This document shows positions 16,119 through 23,400 of a stretch of DNA of 64,000 nt, one piece after another. Each line of letters starts with the position of its first letter. Positions within the stretch are counted from its first letter, which is position 1. The notes beneath the pieces are model-generated. The model was not told where the DNA came from and made no database searches. It saw only the letters and a program-made list of their open reading frames with translations. The position numbers were made by a program, and so were the translations under genes. Where the stretch lies: NCBI RefSeq assembly GCF_048403405.1, contig NZ_CP183129.1, one strand, 5' to 3'. The stretch comes from Escherichia coli. GTDB taxonomy: Bacteria; Pseudomonadota; Gammaproteobacteria; Enterobacterales; Enterobacteriaceae.

Positions 16119-17654
16119 TTAATTACTCCCTTGCCTGATAATTGCAACTCCATTCCCTTTAGCTTTGGGATTATATTTTAGATAGGTGTTATTTGGTGTT
16201 CCCAAGTAACTACTGTATTCTTTTTTTCCCATTCCATTCATATAAGAATTCGTTAAATCTTTGCTTGAAAAATTTAGACTATCATAAACATCATTTTCTT
16301 TTGTTACTTTATTTCCTTTATCGTCAGAGTAAAAACCGTGAGTGTGATAATCACCTACTCTCTCTGAACCTTCAGGGCATTTTATATTTCGCAAGTCTAC
16401 ACTATCATTATCATTTGAACTTATCGGATTCATAGGGAAATATTCACCTTGCTTCTTACATATTAGTCCACCATATTCTTTATTCTTGTTAATTGATTCT
16501 CCATTACACATTGCCAATGCAAATATTCCAATATCATCTATATTTTTTGATTTAAATTCATATAATCCTAATGGATCCATGCCATTCACCGGGCTCAGCG
16601 GATATGTATACAGGTTCCATCCCCCCTTCAGCCCAATCGGATCCTGAGTGATATACCGCCCCTGCAGCGGGTCATAATAGCGGTGGCGGTTGTAATACAG
16701 GCCGGACTCCTCATCATACTGCTGACCCGGCAGGCGGATGAGCTGCTGCAGCTGATGCGGGTTCTCTTCATTCAGCTGGTTACCCCATTCATCGTATTCT
16801 GCGCACCATTCTGTTGCCCCTTCCGTGCTGACAAGCGCCAGCGGCAGGCCGCGATGGTCGCAGTGGTACAGGTGGATTTTTCGCGCCGGCGTGTACACCG
16901 GGTCCATCTGGTTTTGTATCTGCTCCACCGTCAGGCCGCACGATGCCAGCCAGCGGCGGCTTTCCTCGCTCACCCGGTCAGCCAGGATTTCACTTTCCAG
17001 CCGGTCGAGCATCTGCACCAGCACCGGCGGGAACACCACACTGCCACCGTCTTCACCGCCGGACTGCTGAAGCGCATCCGCCAGGCTGCGGCGCTGCGTT
17101 TTCGCCAGCTCACCGGTGGCAGTTTCAACTCTGATGAGTGGCGTGAAGCTCCCCGGCTGATAAACCGTCTGGATGCGGGTTCTGTCGTTCTGTATTGTGG
17201 TCAGCCGGTCGCCGTCCCAGCCGTACCAGGTCACTTCCGGTTTCCATGACAGCGACATCCAGCCCGTCAGGTCCCGTTCACGCCGCCATACCCGTTTTGC
17301 CACCCTGCGGCCCAGCAGGTCGTAAAGATAGCGACTTTCGACCAGCGGCTCTGCATATTGTGTCCGCGTGTAGTGCACCAGCCGGTGCCGGCTGTCGTAA
17401 TGGTACCGGTGAGTCCGCTCATCATCCGTGCGGATAACCCCTTCCGGGATGAGGTCGGTTTTCTCCGTCAGCCTGCCGTGACGGTCATACCGGTAAAGAT
17501 AGTGCGCGTCACGGGCGATACGGTTATCCGGCCATGCGCTGAGGGGGCTGTCCGGGTGCAGCTCCGGGTCGGGCAGGCGGTTGCCTGCCGGGTCCGTGGC
17601 ATACGGGATATCAATGCCCAGGTTACATATAATAATAAGAGCAATTAACTTAAT
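16119..17654 (-). CDS. orphan Rhs C-terminal module: 5'-truncated rhs core ending in the DPLGL motif plus a distinct ~150 aa toxin tip; no start codon of its own
   Basis: Frame is open from 17654 but first ATG/GTG/TTG is at 17378; residues ...[22 protein letters not shown]...[39 protein letters not shown] are near-identical to the main rhs; tip contains YHTHG. Confidence 0.7.
16606..17608 (-). repeat. ~1.0 kb direct repeat (orphan copy) of the rhs core 3' region
   Basis: Near-identical to 20946..21938 (only scattered mismatches on visual alignment). Confidence 0.8.
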
Positions 17655-17981
17655 TTATTTGTTTATAATGCGCTTACTTAATACAAACCATTGAATATAC
17701 CCTCCTGACAGAAAATAAAGCCATATTATTATCGCCATAATATACTTACTATCAATCCTTACGCCAATAATGTCTGAAACAGTCCCTATAAATATTAGAG
17801 CAATAAAGAATACTATGCCTGTTGGAAAACAGATTACCATCATTCCATAAGACATGAGACTAATTAACTCGCTCACATCACGAGTGGAGTCTAATAGTGA
17901 AAGTCTATGCATGGAAAAGAATAGTATTAAAAGCGATAAAGCCAGCCATATAGCTCTGAATAAAAAAATAATATATTTCAT
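17655..17981 (-). CDS. small polytopic membrane protein (108 aa), candidate stranded immunity protein
   Basis: [22 protein letters not shown]...; about three hydrophobic helices; AT-rich; stop codon directly abuts the orphan rhs frame. Confidence 0.4.
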   Translation of the reverse strand: MKYIIFLFRAIWLALSLLILFFSMHRLSLLDSTRDVSELISLMSYGMMVICFPTGIVFFIALIFIGTVSDIIGVRIDSKYIMAIIIWLYFLSGGYIQWFVLSKRIINK

Positions 17982-18059
17982 TACATCACTCCGGTGAATA
18001 CAAATCTAATAAAGCGTCCAATGTTATTTCCGGAGCACTTCATCTTACATGTTTCTAAA

Positions 18060-19924: not shown

Positions 19925-20392
19925 TTACGGATTCTCCTTATTCTTCCTTCTATCCATTCGCTTTAGCTTTAGCTTTTTGAGATCTTGAAGTTTGCTCTTT
20001 GCATCAATATTACCGTTATTTACAGCGAATTCCATCCAATAAATAGCTTTATTCAAATTATAATGTTCTGATAATATTGGATTTGTATCCGATAAAAAAA
20101 ACCCATAATTAAACTGCGCTGTAACACTCCCCTGAGATGCTGATCTTTCTAAGTATCGCAATTGTTTGTAAATGTTATTTTTAGTAAAGCAGTAATATTG
20201 ATATAGTCGAAATGATGCCTCTGAATCACCATGTTGTGATTTATACTTCAGTTTCATCAACTTTTCTTCACTTAAATCATAGGTCATTGCTGTAGACCCC
20301 ATCATACTTTCGTTTTGTTTTATTTTCACATCAGCACCATGCAATTGAAAAATAAAAGAGAAATAAAAAAATAGTAACAAGCATGCTTTCAT
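19925..20392 (-). CDS. putative Rhs immunity protein, secreted, Sel1-like repeat
   Basis: 155 aa; signal peptide MKACLLLFFYFSFIFQLHGA; Sel1/TPR-like segments (…ASQGSVTAQFNYGFFL…, …AIYWMEFAVNNGNIDA…); starts 12 bp after rhs stop; AT-rich. Confidence 0.6.
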   Translation of the reverse strand: MKACLLLFFYFSFIFQLHGADVKIKQNESMMGSTAMTYDLSEEKLMKLKYKSQHGDSEASFRLYQYYCFTKNNIYKQLRYLERSASQGSVTAQFNYGFFLSDTNPILSEHYNLNKAIYWMEFAVNNGNIDAKSKLQDLKKLKLKRMDRRKNKENP

Positions 20393-20403
20393 ACATCTAC
20401 AAC

Positions 20404-23400
20404 CTATCTTATATCACTGGGTTTTTCTGGCGTACCTTGCATATTAGAAATGGGGTGCCCAGATGGCCCATATGTTATCCAATTACCAAGGTCTTTTGTT
20501 GTTATAGCCATTAGATCCTTATTTGAATTAAGGTTCGTTGGTGCTGTTAGCACTGTATCCATTTTTAACTTACCATTAGTTCCTCGCCCCCACCACGTCC
20601 ATAGCGTGTCAGGTCCTATTACATTTGTATGTAACTCTTTAGCTAATTGGCTAGCAAATGAATTTTGTCCTTTACCTGTATTACAAGAAAATAACCAAAC
20701 TGTCATCCCATCTTTATAATTCCCATCAAATTTAATTAGATATGCTAGATCTTTAGCTGTCATGATACTGCGCGTTGCGGATTCAATAGATGTGGGGGTA
20801 CCATGCCCCCCGATTGTGAAAACGCCTGGGATATTAATCTCATCAGCTACAGAATGGATAAGATCACTTTCGGGGTATAAATTTATATCAACCAAACCTT
20901 GCGGATCTACATTTATGACCGGATCCAACGGATACTGATAAAAATTCCATCCCCCCTTAAGCCCAATCGGATCCTGAGTGATATACCGCCCCTGCAGCGG
21001 GTCATAATAGCGGTGGCGGTTGTAATAGAGGCCGGACTCCTCATCATACTGCTGACCCGGCAGGCGGATGAGCTGCTGCAGCTGGTGCGGGTTCTCTTCA
21101 TTCAGCAGGTTGCCCCATTCATCGTATTCTGCGCACCATTCTGTTGCCCCTTCCGTGCTGACAAGCGCCAGCGGCAGGCCGCGATGGTCGCAGTGGTACA
21201 GGTGGATTTTTCGCGCCGGCGTGTACACCGGGTCCATCTGGTTTTGTATCTGCTCCACCGTCAGGCCGCACGATGCCAGCCAGCGGCGGCTTTCCTCGCT
21301 CACCCGGTCAGTAAGGATTTCACTTTCCAGCCGGTCGAGCATCTGCACCAGCACCGGCGGGAACACCACACTGCCACCGTCTTCGCCGCCGGACTGCTGA
21401 AGGGCATCCGCCAGGCTGCGGCGCTGCGTTTTCGCCAGCTCACCGGTGGCGGTTTCAACTCTGATGAGTGGCGTGAAGCTCCCCGGCTGATAAACCGTCT
21501 GGATGCGGGTTCTGTCGTTCTGTATTGTGGTCAGCCGGTCGCCGTCCCAGCCGTACCAGGTCACTTCCGGTTTCCGTGACAGCGACATCCAGCCCGTCAG
21601 GTCCCGTTCACGCCGCCATACCCGTTTTGCCACCCTGCGGCCCAGCGGGTCGTAAAGATAGCGACTTTCGACCAGCGGCTCTGCATATTGTGTCCGCGTG
21701 TAGTGCACCAGCCGGTGCCGGCTGTCGTAATGATACCGGTGAGTCCGCTCATCATCCGTGCGGATAACCCCTTCCGGGATGAGGTCGGTTTTCTCTGTCA
21801 GCCTGCCGTGACGGTCATACCGGTAAAGATAGTGCGCGTCACGGGCGATACGGTTATCCGGCCACATGCTGAGGGTGCTGTCCGGGTGCAGCTCCGGGTC
21901 GGGCAGGCGGTTACCTGCCGGGTCCGTGGCATACGGGATGCGGATATCCAGATTCGCTGCGGTGGTGTGGACGCCGGTCAGCCTGCCGGTGTCGCTGTAG
22001 CTGTAACTCCGGGTCTGGCGCGGGCTGCTGATGCGGATGAGTTCGCCGTTGTCGTTCCAGGTGTAATCGCGGTCATACTGCAGGCTGTTCAGGTGCTGGC
22101 TCTGTAACTGCCCGGCAGAGGTGTAAGCGGTGGTGAGTTCATAACGGCCGAAGCTGCGCAGCGTTTCCCGGTGCAGGCGGTCGCGGGTGAAATCCACCAG
22201 CGGTGTGTCGCCGAGTTTCATGCCTGACAGCCAGCCGCTGCCGTAGGTCAGCCATTCCACGGCGGGCAGGCTGTCCGGTATACAGCGGTTCGCCAGTCCC
22301 TGCGCGTTGTACGCATGTCTGGTTTCATGCTGCCAGAGCAGTGCTTCCGTCTGCGGGTGATGCACCGTCTGGCGCTCACCGGTCAGGCGGCCTTTCTCAT
22401 CATACCCGTAATGCACCGTCACCCGGTGGCCTTCGCTGAGATGGCTGATGCCTGTCAGCCAGCCGCGTTCGTCGTACCGCCACTGTTCTGCGGTTTCACC
22501 ATTCACCGTTCGCTGTGTGATGCGGTCTGCTTCGTCATAGTGCCAGTGGGTGACCAGCCCCTCATCCTCGCTGCGGATAAGTTTGCCGGTCAGGTCGTGG
22601 TGATAACGCTGTGTGCGGCCGTCAAAGCCGGTTTCCTGTATCAGCCGGTCAAGTACATCGTAACGGAAGGTGGTGTGGCTGCCGTTTTCACTGGTCAGGC
22701 GGATGACCCGCCCGGCAGCATCGTATTCCATACTGCGCGTCAGACCGCCCTGCGTGGTACGGATGGCCTTTCCCCACGCATCGTACTGTGTCCCGTTTCT
22801 GCTGTCGTCCGGGGCAATGACGGCGGTCAGGTCACCGGCGGCGTTGTATTCATACCGCGTTTCATGGCCCTGCATGTCTTTCACCGCAATTAACTGTCCA
22901 CGGCTGTCGTATGCGCGGTACTGGCTCAGGCCTTCCTCGCGGTGCACCGTCGTCACCTGACCAAAACGGTCATGGTCATAGCGGGTTACATAACCGGAAC
23001 AGTCGGTAAAGCTCAGCAACTGACCGTAACGGCTCCACGTCATGGTTTTCCGGCTGCCGGTGGCATCTTCCGTTGCGCAGGGGAAGTCACTGTGTGGATT
23101 ATCATAACGGTAGCGGGTGATATCGCCGTCAGGGGCGGTTTCCTGAATCAGACGGCCGGATTCATCATATTTGCGGCGCAACTCCAGCCCGTCAGTCCCG
23201 GTGGCTGACGTTAACTGGTTGTGGTGGTTATAGTAAAATGCCGATGCCCTGCCATCCGGTGTGGTGATGCGCGTGATGAGTCCCGTCACCACATCCGGGC
23301 TGTACTCAGTCGTCCGGCCTGCGGCATCCGTCTGTGCCTTAAGCCTGCCCACCGCATCAAACTGACTCTGCGCGACGCTGCCGTCCGCGTGTTCCTTTTT

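Follow-up and report, generated by a model that had tools for sequence, protein, structure and literature searches.

The window, a stretch of 64,000 nucleotides of Escherichia coli DNA, carries an Rhs element of the RhsF type in the interval from yiiX to rpmE, and the features of the locus are listed in Table 1. The RhsF nomenclature reportedly comes from the Hill laboratory, and Wang and colleagues are said to have described the element and dsORF-f1 to dsORF-f3 in J Bacteriol in 1998. The present locus is linked to that element only by the RefSeq product name of the ORF at 15794–16117. The EHEC 'RhsF' of PMC7618764 is another locus.

Table 1. Features of the yiiX–rpmE site, in coordinates of the window.
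Feature	Position	Strand	Remarks
yiiX	14279–14887	+	Chromosomal flank, other side from rpmE
Frameshifted IS1H copy	15032–15724	+	Boundary on the yiiX side; occurs in all three allelic architectures
dsORF-f3	15794–16117	-	Putative immunity gene of the orphan tip; RefSeq name 'RHS element protein dsORF-f3'
Orphan tip ('F' tip)	16119–16587	-	DUF4329 domain (Pfam PF14220, E = 2.2e-15)
Orphan copy (O) of the 1,022-bp repeat	16588–17609	-	Core fragment heading the displaced rhs-CT module
Spacer	17610–17654	-	Ends in the joint between ybfB flank and core fragment; base-identical in the window, strain PD23 and K-12 RhsC (ybfB-ybfO)
ybfB	17655–17981	-	The 108-aa ORF of the first-pass annotation; in K-12, the small ORF next after rhsC
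Last ~100 bp of an RhsC-type tip	17982–18082	-	Truncated by the H-rpt element
H-rpt / ISAs1-family element	18076–19366	-	Transposase annotated as frameshifted
Decayed tip remnants	19366–19914	-	yibS/yibW-like; include a third, diverged core copy (19746–19914)
YibG-like ORF, 155 aa	19925–20392	-	Putative immunity gene of the main tip; RefSeq: sel1 repeat family protein
yibJ-type main tip	20404–20917	-	Without Pfam or PDB match
Full-length rhs, 1,409 aa	20404–24633	-	Core (residues 1–1247) plus C-terminal yibJ-type tip of ~160 aa
Main copy (M) of the 1,022-bp repeat	20918–21939	-	Last ~340 core codons of full-length rhs, up to the PxxxxDPxGL motif
rpmE	24793–25005	-	Chromosomal flank, far side from yiiX

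The core of the full-length Rhs protein matches the NF041261 RHS_core profile over residues 1–1247 of 1409 with 2609.9 bits (cut-off 2000), and the protein has further matches to YD repeats and to Rhs_assc_core. DUF6531 is strongly matched at residues 46–123 (E = 8e-19), and the Pfam PAAR_motif, of the type associated with delivery by type VI secretion, gives a weak match at residues 3–20 (E = 0.066). The orphan is a 5'-truncated rhs of the kind known as an orphan rhs-CT/rhsI module (Poole et al., 2011) or 'dissociated tip' (Jackson et al., 2009). It keeps the core up to DPxGL, covering only positions 908–1261 of the 1,261-position NF041261 profile; the N-terminal delivery region and a start of its own are absent. 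Its frame is open for 511 codons from the stop codon of ybfB (17654) with no ATG at its head; the earliest in-frame start on the ORF list is the GTG at 17378. In RefSeq, the fragment bears the label 'incomplete; missing N-terminus'.

The PxxxxDPxGL boundary is found in both copies. Beyond it, the main tip opens with VDIN and the orphan tip with YEFK, and the nucleotide similarity of the two copies stops there. The GC content is 58–66% in the core compared with 29–43% in the tips and downstream genes. The YibG-like ORF begins 11 nt after the main gene, and dsORF-f3 begins 1 nt after the orphan. Both reading frames, that of the orphan tip and that of dsORF-f3, are intact. Against Pfam, the YibG-like ORF gave only weak Sel1/TPR matches, and a profile search with dsORF-f3 returned no family match. 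No characterised homologue was found for either tip, the orphan tip being assigned to DUF4329. This anatomy fits putative toxin/immunity pairs, each made of a tip and the small ORF downstream of it. For the truncated RhsC-type tip, the immunity gene is probably ybfB.

When the window was compared with itself by blastn, the M and O copies aligned as a direct match of 1,022 bp with 97.16% identity, 29 mismatches and no gaps, at a constant offset of 4,330 bp. The same pair was recovered by a separate repeat search, which also revealed the third, decayed copy, limited to the final ~170 bp of the core (74–78% identity). A 1-kb ungapped match at 97% excludes chance, and the repeat is thus real. Ten of the 29 mismatches fall in the 27 bp adjoining the tips (16588–16614); the other 995 bp contain 19 and are 98.1% identical. 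The longest perfect blocks measure 199, 124 and 85 bp. Both copies have the same orientation and reading frame, and 9 of 340 residues differ at the protein level. The first-pass annotation had described two near-identical direct repeats of about 1 kb flanking the main tip, its immunity gene and the H-rpt element, and the alignment confirms them and shows that they are collinear. Its right ends (17608 and 21938) are accurate to within 1 nt, but its left end at 20946 misses the register of 16606 by 10 nt (16606 + 4330 = 20936), and the homology reaches 18 nt further towards the tips than it had given.

Among 5,426 complete genomes, three architectures are present at this site, all with yiiX-IS1H on one side and rpmE-priA on the other. 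In the simple allele, a full-length rhs carries the DUF4329 tip and is followed by dsORF-f3. Thus, the tip that is orphaned in the window sits on a full-length gene at the same chromosomal site in other strains. About 1,700 genomes have this form (1,917 less the 214 with one displaced tip). The allele with one displaced tip accounts for those 214 genomes, and 148 have the same two-step, 9.8-kb arrangement as the window. The window differs from the allele with one displaced tip in a single respect: 2,820 bp stand in place of 361 bp of the RhsC-type tip. Over the 995 sites, 5–12 positions distinguish the O copy from the simple allele's 3' core and 19 distinguish it from the M copy; the O copy is the orthologue of that 3' core. 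Over most of the main core, the sampled simple alleles diverge from the window by 1–5% per 300-bp window. The window-type lineages are largely human-associated.

The modules between and around the two copies are common to two other rhs loci. The segment from 21373 down to 19366 is 97.5% identical to K-12 yibJ-yibG-yibS-yibW. The segment from 18082 down to 16588 is 97.1% identical to the K-12 stretch that starts in the last part of the rhsC tip, spans ybfB and reaches the ybfO core fragment, and it has the same joint; at 17609/17610, the junction of ybfB flank and core fragment is base-identical to that of K-12 rhsC-ybfB-ybfO. In K-12 RhsC (rhsC-ybfB-ybfO-ybfC), the joint leads to ybfO and ybfC, whereas here it leads to DUF4329 and dsORF-f3. 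In K-12 RhsA (rhsA-yibA-yibJ-yibG), the yibJ-type tip is an orphan, whereas here it is on the full-length gene; the main-tip module is also attached to a full-length gene in O157:H7. Both K-12 elements lie at chromosomal sites other than yiiX-rpmE, a site that we take to be empty in K-12.

Near-isogenic pairs in which only the segment between the repeats differs were found for the sister allele, which has the RhsC-type tip. For this allele, 19 of the best 60 matches were in one piece at 99.3–99.9% identity, and one of the 19 is a clean chimera with a single switch and identical flanks. One near-isogenic pair is BroCaecum-55 (simple) and PD23 (one displaced tip). The two strains have no differences in the 3,363 bp on the left and no non-diagnostic differences in the repeat, where a single switch from O-like to M-like sequence is observed; identity then continues over the following 2,438 bp of core. 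The event that separates them is an integration or an excision, and one switch point is compatible with either direction. Among simple alleles that are otherwise at least 99.3% identical, at least two different switch intervals are present.

The two repeats are the end of the core of the full-length rhs and the same stretch heading an orphan, and we consider it likely that C-terminal tip displacement left this duplication behind. The repeat is best read as a displacement scar because the O copy is orthologous to the 3' core of the simple allele. The ancestral yiiX-rpmE allele would have been a full-length rhs with the DUF4329 tip and dsORF-f3. Homologous recombination in the core would have brought in a cassette that comprised 1,022 bp of core, the RhsC-type tip and ybfB, and the old tip would have been pushed downstream. 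Later, most of the second tip would have been replaced by the yibJ-type tip, the yibG-like gene, the decayed tips and the H-rpt element. Because rhs cores show extensive mosaicism and gene conversion, this order of events is a parsimony argument and not a reconstruction. From this arrangement we infer that RecA-dependent recombination between the copies could excise the 4.33-kb segment, possibly as a circle. Excision would return the DUF4329 tip to a delivery-competent protein with loss of the YibG-like putative immunity gene. Without an earlier duplication of the locus, as found in Salmonella, the switched cell would have no protection from siblings that had not switched.

Crossovers simulated at four positions in the repeat all gave an intact, in-frame rhs of 1,394 aa carrying the orphan tip. 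This is the length of the natural full-length gene with the DUF4329 tip in strain TUM1886. A crossover within the repeat removes 4,330 bp comprising the main tip, the YibG-like gene, the decayed tip, the H-rpt/ISAs1 element, the 100-bp tip remnant and ybfB, and dsORF-f3 stays. In the window-type genome TUM14771, the YibG-like gene is found at one place in the record. The geometry of the earlier proposal, a deletion of about 4.3 kb that fuses the expressed rhs to the orphan tip, is thus right, and so is the loss of the previous putative immunity gene, as the only copy found would be removed. With its length, identity, perfect blocks and in-frame chimera, the repeat has the homology needed for main/orphan switching and should still be a competent recombination substrate.

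The proposal went further and saw in the repeats a built-in toxin switch. If such a purpose-built switch were in regular use, deletions would often exchange the yibJ-type toxin for the DUF4329 toxin in this lineage. The substrate, 1,022 bp at 97.2% identity, exceeds the 522 bp at 95% proven to recombine in Salmonella; the simulated products are in frame with an intact orphan tip and dsORF-f3, the simple architecture is common, and the sister allele has near-isogenic partners. What the population holds points the other way. A deleted-looking form, the simple allele, does occur at the same site in about 1,700 of the 5,426 complete genomes, but no deletion product of the window's own haplotype is among them; the best one-piece match to its synthetic recombinant is 98.4% identical, where at least 99.2% was expected. 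The sampled simple alleles carry a different main core, as their divergence from the window indicates. As there is one copy of the YibG-like gene, a cell that switched would become sensitive to its siblings; for this reason, Koskiniemi et al. needed a prior duplication. Regular use of a purpose-built switch is thus doubtful, and as the source of the simple genomes it is unsupported, given the orthology of the O copy to the simple core, the divergence of the sampled simple main cores and the absence of a deletion product.

The orphan module could instead be retained for its own sake, as an internally transcribed TA-like pair or as an immunity store against the DUF4329 toxins of neighbours, with the core homology incidental. 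Orphan Rhs toxins of Salmonella use promoters inside the rhs ORF and act as type II TA modules, and similar promoter sequences have been reported in E. coli (PMC7043789); CDI systems produce orphan immunity proteins (PMC3150448). The long open orphan frame and the intact dsORF-f3 fit this reading. However, a promoter-like scan of 15700–18100 gave 8 sites against 5.6 ± 2.0 in shuffled sequence, which is no excess, and retention accounts for the kept tip and immunity gene but does not explain the precise 1,022-bp length of the core fragment or its conserved joint. As an explanation of the repeat it seems unlikely to us, and it is compatible with tip displacement. A local tandem duplication of the rhs 3' end, or an assembly artefact, has the high similarity of the copies in its favour and nothing else, and we regard it as extremely improbable. 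The copies differ at 29 sites, K-12 RhsA and RhsC modules lie between them, the joint at 17609/17610 is common to K-12 RhsC, and an artefact is ruled out by the presence of the 9.8-kb arrangement in 148 independent complete genomes.

Tip displacement, the preferred reading, leaves room for a wider one: the locus may be natural-population evidence for an excision/integration cycle of rhs tip cassettes, with the window-type allele an active, reversible switch in its lineages. The base-identical joint at two loci, the near-isogenic pairs with one clean switch point and the presence of at least two switch intervals suggest such a cycle, which we put forward only tentatively. If true, it would mean repeated, ongoing tip switching in wild E. 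coli.

Earlier publications already cover the gene arrangement, the displacement model and the switch by recombination with its cost in immunity, and the locus is an ordinary one in these respects. Jackson et al. (2009; PMC2935791) described excision as a circle via the repeats, followed by integration through a single crossover in the core. In their displacement model, as here, an intact gene is followed by fragments that repeat its core in direct orientation and bear unrelated tips, and tips are exchanged between loci. Nothing at the present locus differs in kind; it adds the allelic series (simple, one displaced tip, two-step) and the base-identical joint at two loci. The closest experimental case is rhs-main (STM0291) and rhs-CT-orphan (STM0292) of Salmonella Typhimurium LT2, for which Koskiniemi et al. 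(2014; PMC3967940) demonstrated main/orphan recombination over 522 bp at 95% identity and treated the problem of immunity loss explicitly. Their switching scheme also calls for an earlier duplication that preserves the main immunity gene and for a competitive gain of the recombinants. Both loci have a full-length rhs, an immunity gene and then a 5'-truncated orphan with direct core homology. In LT2, recombination joins the orphan tip to the main core and removes the immunity gene of the main tip, and a crossover at the present locus would do the same. The homology is longer and more similar here than in LT2, and the intervening DNA is larger, with 3.3 kb of unique sequence that includes the H-rpt element and the remnants of two further tips.

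Rhs tips set which neighbours are killed and which protection a strain has, and a tip swap therefore changes its competitive identity. The locus shows turnover of this repertoire, with three allelic states at one site and modules common to two other rhs loci, and offers no new principle. In practice, it offers a tractable case in E. coli for measuring switching rates and the role of prior duplication, with a substrate longer and more similar than that of Salmonella.

A further likeness is to the orphan cdiA-CT/cdiI modules (Poole et al., 2011; PMC3150448), which are also silent toxin/immunity cassettes downstream of a main gene and lack translation initiation signals. In both systems, homology is kept up to a conserved motif, VENN in CDI and PxxxxDPxGL in Rhs. 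The delivery family differs, with two-partner secretion for CdiA and a YD-repeat shell for Rhs.

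When the window was aligned with itself by blastn, a direct repeat of 1,022 bp was recovered, with an orphan copy at 16588-17609 and a main copy at 20918-21939, both on the minus strand. The two copies are 97.16% identical, with 29 mismatches and no gaps, and the offset between them is constant at 4,330 bp. A separate repeat search of the window returned the same pair. Ten of the 29 mismatches lie in the 27 bp adjoining the tips (16588-16614); the remaining 995 bp hold 19 and are 98.1% identical, and the longest perfect blocks in the repeat measure 199, 124 and 85 bp. The peptides encoded by the two copies differ at 9 of 340 residues. 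The two near-identical direct repeats of about 1 kb proposed in the first-pass annotation were thus borne out as collinear and gapless. The coordinates proposed there were essentially right, except that the second start (20946) is 10 nt out of register with the first (16606) and that the homology reaches 18 nt further toward the tips. The final ~170 bp of the core occur a third time, in diverged form, at 19746-19914 (74-78% identity), where they head decayed yibS/yibW-like remnants; this copy is probably too diverged and too short for efficient recombination.

The surrounding 9.8 kb (15400-25200) match E. coli chromosomes at 100% identity, NZ_CP095533 among them, and the RefSeq annotation of that record puts the locus between yiiX and rpmE. 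Among 5,426 complete E. coli genomes, 148 contain 80% or more of this segment. The full-length Rhs protein matches the NCBIfam equivalog 'RHS element core protein' over residues 1-1247 with 2609.9 bits (cut-off 2000), and its match to PAAR, the domain expected for delivery by type VI secretion, is weak. The orphan rhs fragment covers only positions 908-1261 of the 1,261-position RHS core profile. The orphan tip is a DUF4329 domain (E = 2.2e-15), its sole match; the main tip, the yibJ-type C-terminus of the full-length protein, has no Pfam and no PDB match, and the YibG-like ORF has weak TPR/Sel1 matches only. The core has 58-66% GC, and the tips and downstream genes have 29-43%; a GC-rich core with AT-richer tips and downstream genes is the classical Rhs signature. 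The profile, tip and GC evidence together identify one repeat copy as the 3′ core end of the full-length gene and the other as the same stretch heading an orphan rhs-CT/immunity module. In the features tested, the locus is an Rhs polymorphic-toxin gene accompanied by an orphan rhs-CT/immunity module, with putative toxin, immunity and delivery functions. The ybfB stop codon (17654-17657) is in frame with the orphan rhs frame and abuts it, and this frame is open for 511 codons from 17654.

Features of the yiiX-rpmE locus in 5′ to 3′ minus-strand order
Feature	Position	Strand	Remark
rpmE			first in minus-strand order (RefSeq annotation)
Full-length rhs, 1,409 aa	24633 to 20404	minus	
YibG-like ORF, 155 aa	20392 to 19925	minus	
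Decayed tip remnants	19914 to 19366	minus	
H-rpt/ISAs1 element	19366 to 18076	minus	frameshifted
RhsC-type tip, last ~100 bp			between H-rpt/ISAs1 element and ybfB
ybfB	17981 to 17655	minus	108-aa ORF of the first-pass annotation
5′-truncated rhs fragment	17654 to 16119	minus	open frame
dsORF-f3	16117 to 15794	minus	
IS1H copy			frameshifted; after dsORF-f3, before yiiX
yiiX			last in minus-strand order

We tentatively take the locus to be RhsF, from the RefSeq product name dsORF-f3 and the RhsF element reported by Wang et al. 1998. The EHEC 'RhsF/RhsFI' (PMC7618764) is a different locus (S-loop 44, ECs0604) and has only the name in common.

The modules between and beside the repeat copies have close counterparts in K-12. 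The segment running from 18082 to 16588 is 97.1% identical, without gaps, to a segment of K-12 RhsC comprising the rhsC tip end, ybfB and the ybfO core fragment. For the segment from 21373 to 19366, the K-12 counterpart is yibJ-yibG-yibS-yibW of the RhsA orphan region, at 97.5% identity. At 17610/17609, where the ybfB flank meets the core fragment, the window, strain PD23 and K-12 RhsC agree base for base. The outer boundary of the repeat is therefore an old junction, since carried to two or more loci on the chromosome. This K-12 RhsC joint, the K-12-like modules between the copies and the recurrence of the arrangement in 148 of the 5,426 genomes rule out both a local duplication and an artefact of assembly. 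The yibJ-type tip with a yibG-like gene occurs in 3,428 genomes, as an orphan behind rhsA in most sampled rows, as in K-12; in O157:H7 this tip is annotated on a full-length gene. The junction between the H-rpt element and the yibW-like remnant (19366) occurs in 167 genomes, and the complete window-type arrangement in 148. It is nearly confined to window-type genomes, and no donor locus for the yibJ-tip/H-rpt segment was identified; the other ~19 genomes may hold a variant or donor arrangement.

Comparative searches revealed three alleles at this site, all with the same flanks. In the simple allele (S), the DUF4329 tip sits on the full-length rhs itself, with dsORF-f3 and IS1H after it. In C0, represented by strain PD23, the full-length rhs has an RhsC-type tip and is followed by ybfB, a 1-kb core fragment, the DUF4329 tip and dsORF-f3; at least 80% of the diagnostic query is covered in 214 genomes. 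The third, C1, is the window's own arrangement (148 genomes). It differs from C0 only at the start of the RhsC-type tip, where the first 361 bp have given way to 2,820 bp (18083-20902) that comprise the yibJ-type tip, the yibG-like gene, decayed tip remnants and the H-rpt element. When 15700-17609 and 21940-23500 were fused into a synthetic 'deleted' sequence, it matched in one place over at least 80% of its length in 1,917 genomes; these include the 214 C0 genomes, as pieces up to 2.2 kb apart were joined as one match, so that ~1,700 genomes carry the simple allele. The deleted configuration that the first-pass annotation suggested looking for in relatives thus exists and is the commonest allele at the site. 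Annotations of WB61 and RS571, two of the genomes matching a synthetic deletion of PD23, suggest further architectures, with an extra rhs fragment in one and an IS1A insertion plus a separately called DUF4329 protein in the other.

The orphan copy resembles the simple alleles more than it resembles its partner. In the 995-bp near-identical part, 5 and 12 positions separate it from the 3′ core of two simple alleles, and 19 separate it from the window's main copy; between the main copy and the simple alleles there are 20-23 differences. By orthology, the orphan copy therefore corresponds to the former 3′ end of the gene. The sampled simple alleles are identical to the window in the rpmE-priA flank and diverge from it by 1-5% per 300-bp window over most of the main core. 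The same picture holds between a second window-type strain (named C1, as the allele) and the simple-allele strain TUM1886: identity is 99.75% in the left part, orphan copy included, and 98.3% in the main core. The parsimonious reading of these sequences is successive C-terminal displacement from S through C0 to C1, with the repeat as the scar left behind. The old tip of the simple allele would have been displaced downstream to give C0, and a second C-terminal displacement would have turned C0 into C1. This reading fits the model of Jackson et al. 2009 (PMC2935791), in which dissociated rhs fragments are large direct repeats of the upstream core and a circle excised via direct repeats is proposed to integrate into a recipient core by a single crossover. 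Just 5′ of the DPLGL codons (16578-16614; also loci L002, L003, L006, L010 and L011 of other E. coli genomes), the same DUF4329 tip is preceded by one of two alternative ~37-bp patches, each with its own 17-residue peptide. One occurs in the window, PD23, BroCaecum-55 and O157 and the other in TUM1886, NMBU-W10C18 and strain C1; as window-type genomes have either, there are two distinct orphan haplotypes with the inserted segment.

A near-isogenic pair was found for the sister allele, C0. A synthetic deletion of the PD23 haplotype matched BroCaecum-55 in one piece at 99.9%, and the best 60 matches included 18 further simple alleles at 99.3-99.7%. BroCaecum-55 and PD23 show no differences in the 3,363 bp left of the repeat and no non-diagnostic differences within it. 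Orphan-like states give way to main-like ones at one clean switch, which falls in the interval from ~255 to ~627 of the fragment, and the next 2,438 bp of core are identical. The main rhs has, towards its 5′ end, a single 146-bp patch with 12 SNPs (L006 10202-10347 versus L011) that looks like a short gene conversion from another rhs copy. The pair shows an apparently precise gain or loss of the inter-repeat segment with nothing else changed, and repeat-mediated exchange appears, from these alignments, to occur at this locus for C0. Since integration and excision predict one switch point equally, it does not tell which of the two took place. In other simple alleles that are nearly identical, the switch lies in the interval from ~628 to ~996, and in some (L014 and L015) the pattern is not a single switch, which indicates additional gene conversion. 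Polymorphism and gene conversion also blur such patterns.

In the window, crossovers were simulated at four positions, and each gave an intact ORF of 1,394 aa, the length of the natural simple-allele protein of TUM1886. The fusion of the main rhs to the orphan tip by recombination, as put forward in the first-pass annotation, is thus predicted to be in frame at all four. The same annotation held that immunity would be lost. The predicted deletion does remove the YibG-like gene, present in one copy in a window-type genome (TUM14771), and keeps dsORF-f3; the position of the YibG-like protein suggests that it is the immunity factor for the main tip. If so, a cell that switched would be protected from its new toxin but sensitive to siblings that had not switched, the very problem described by Koskiniemi et al. 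2014 (PMC3967940). In Salmonella LT2, the main and orphan genes were shown to recombine over 522 bp at 95% identity, and this recombination is selected following a locus duplication that preserves the main immunity gene (PMC3967940). The window's substrate is about twice as long and more similar, and by this comparison it would work like the Salmonella main/orphan pair.

This capacity might suggest that the repeat is a purpose-built toxin switch in regular use. Such a role faces the immunity cost and is without support for the window's own haplotype: no deletion derivative of it was found in 5,426 genomes, where the best match was 98.4% against at least 99.2% expected. The many full-length one-piece matches to the synthetic recombinant (15700-17609 plus 21940-23500), none above 98.4%, represent a different, older haplotype. 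We therefore consider a dedicated switch improbable. The orphan could also be retained because it works as a toxin-antitoxin-like pair with internal expression or as a store of immunity (PMC7043789, PMC3150448), although a simple scan for promoter-like sites in the orphan region found no enrichment relative to shuffled sequence. Retention is compatible with successive displacement and does not exclude it.

The architecture, its origin and the switch hypothesis with its cost in immunity have all been described in the literature. What the locus adds is modest: a three-state allelic series at one site, a cassette joint common to two loci and near-isogenic pairs, which make the locus a convenient E. 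coli test case. The full-length rhs is annotated as frameshifted in the window-type strain C1 (L010 6005-10235) and in two simple-allele strains (L009 2920-7103 and L016 2826-7011), so the 'expressed' gene is not intact in every carrier. In O157:H7 Z563 (L007 2595-2917) and WCHEC020032 (L008 2595-2917), dsORF-f3, the putative immunity gene for the DUF4329 tip, is annotated as frameshifted and the full-length rhs with that tip as intact. An intact toxin gene beside a broken putative immunity gene would be odd if the toxin is expressed.

Elsewhere in the window, a 517-aa ORF (7250..8803) lies where locus L002 of a related strain has an annotated bifunctional metallophosphatase/5′-nucleotidase, and a 376-aa hypothetical ORF (8936..10066) overlaps the end of metL. 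In K-12, metF follows metL, and on that gene order 7250-10066 may be another strain-variable insertion.
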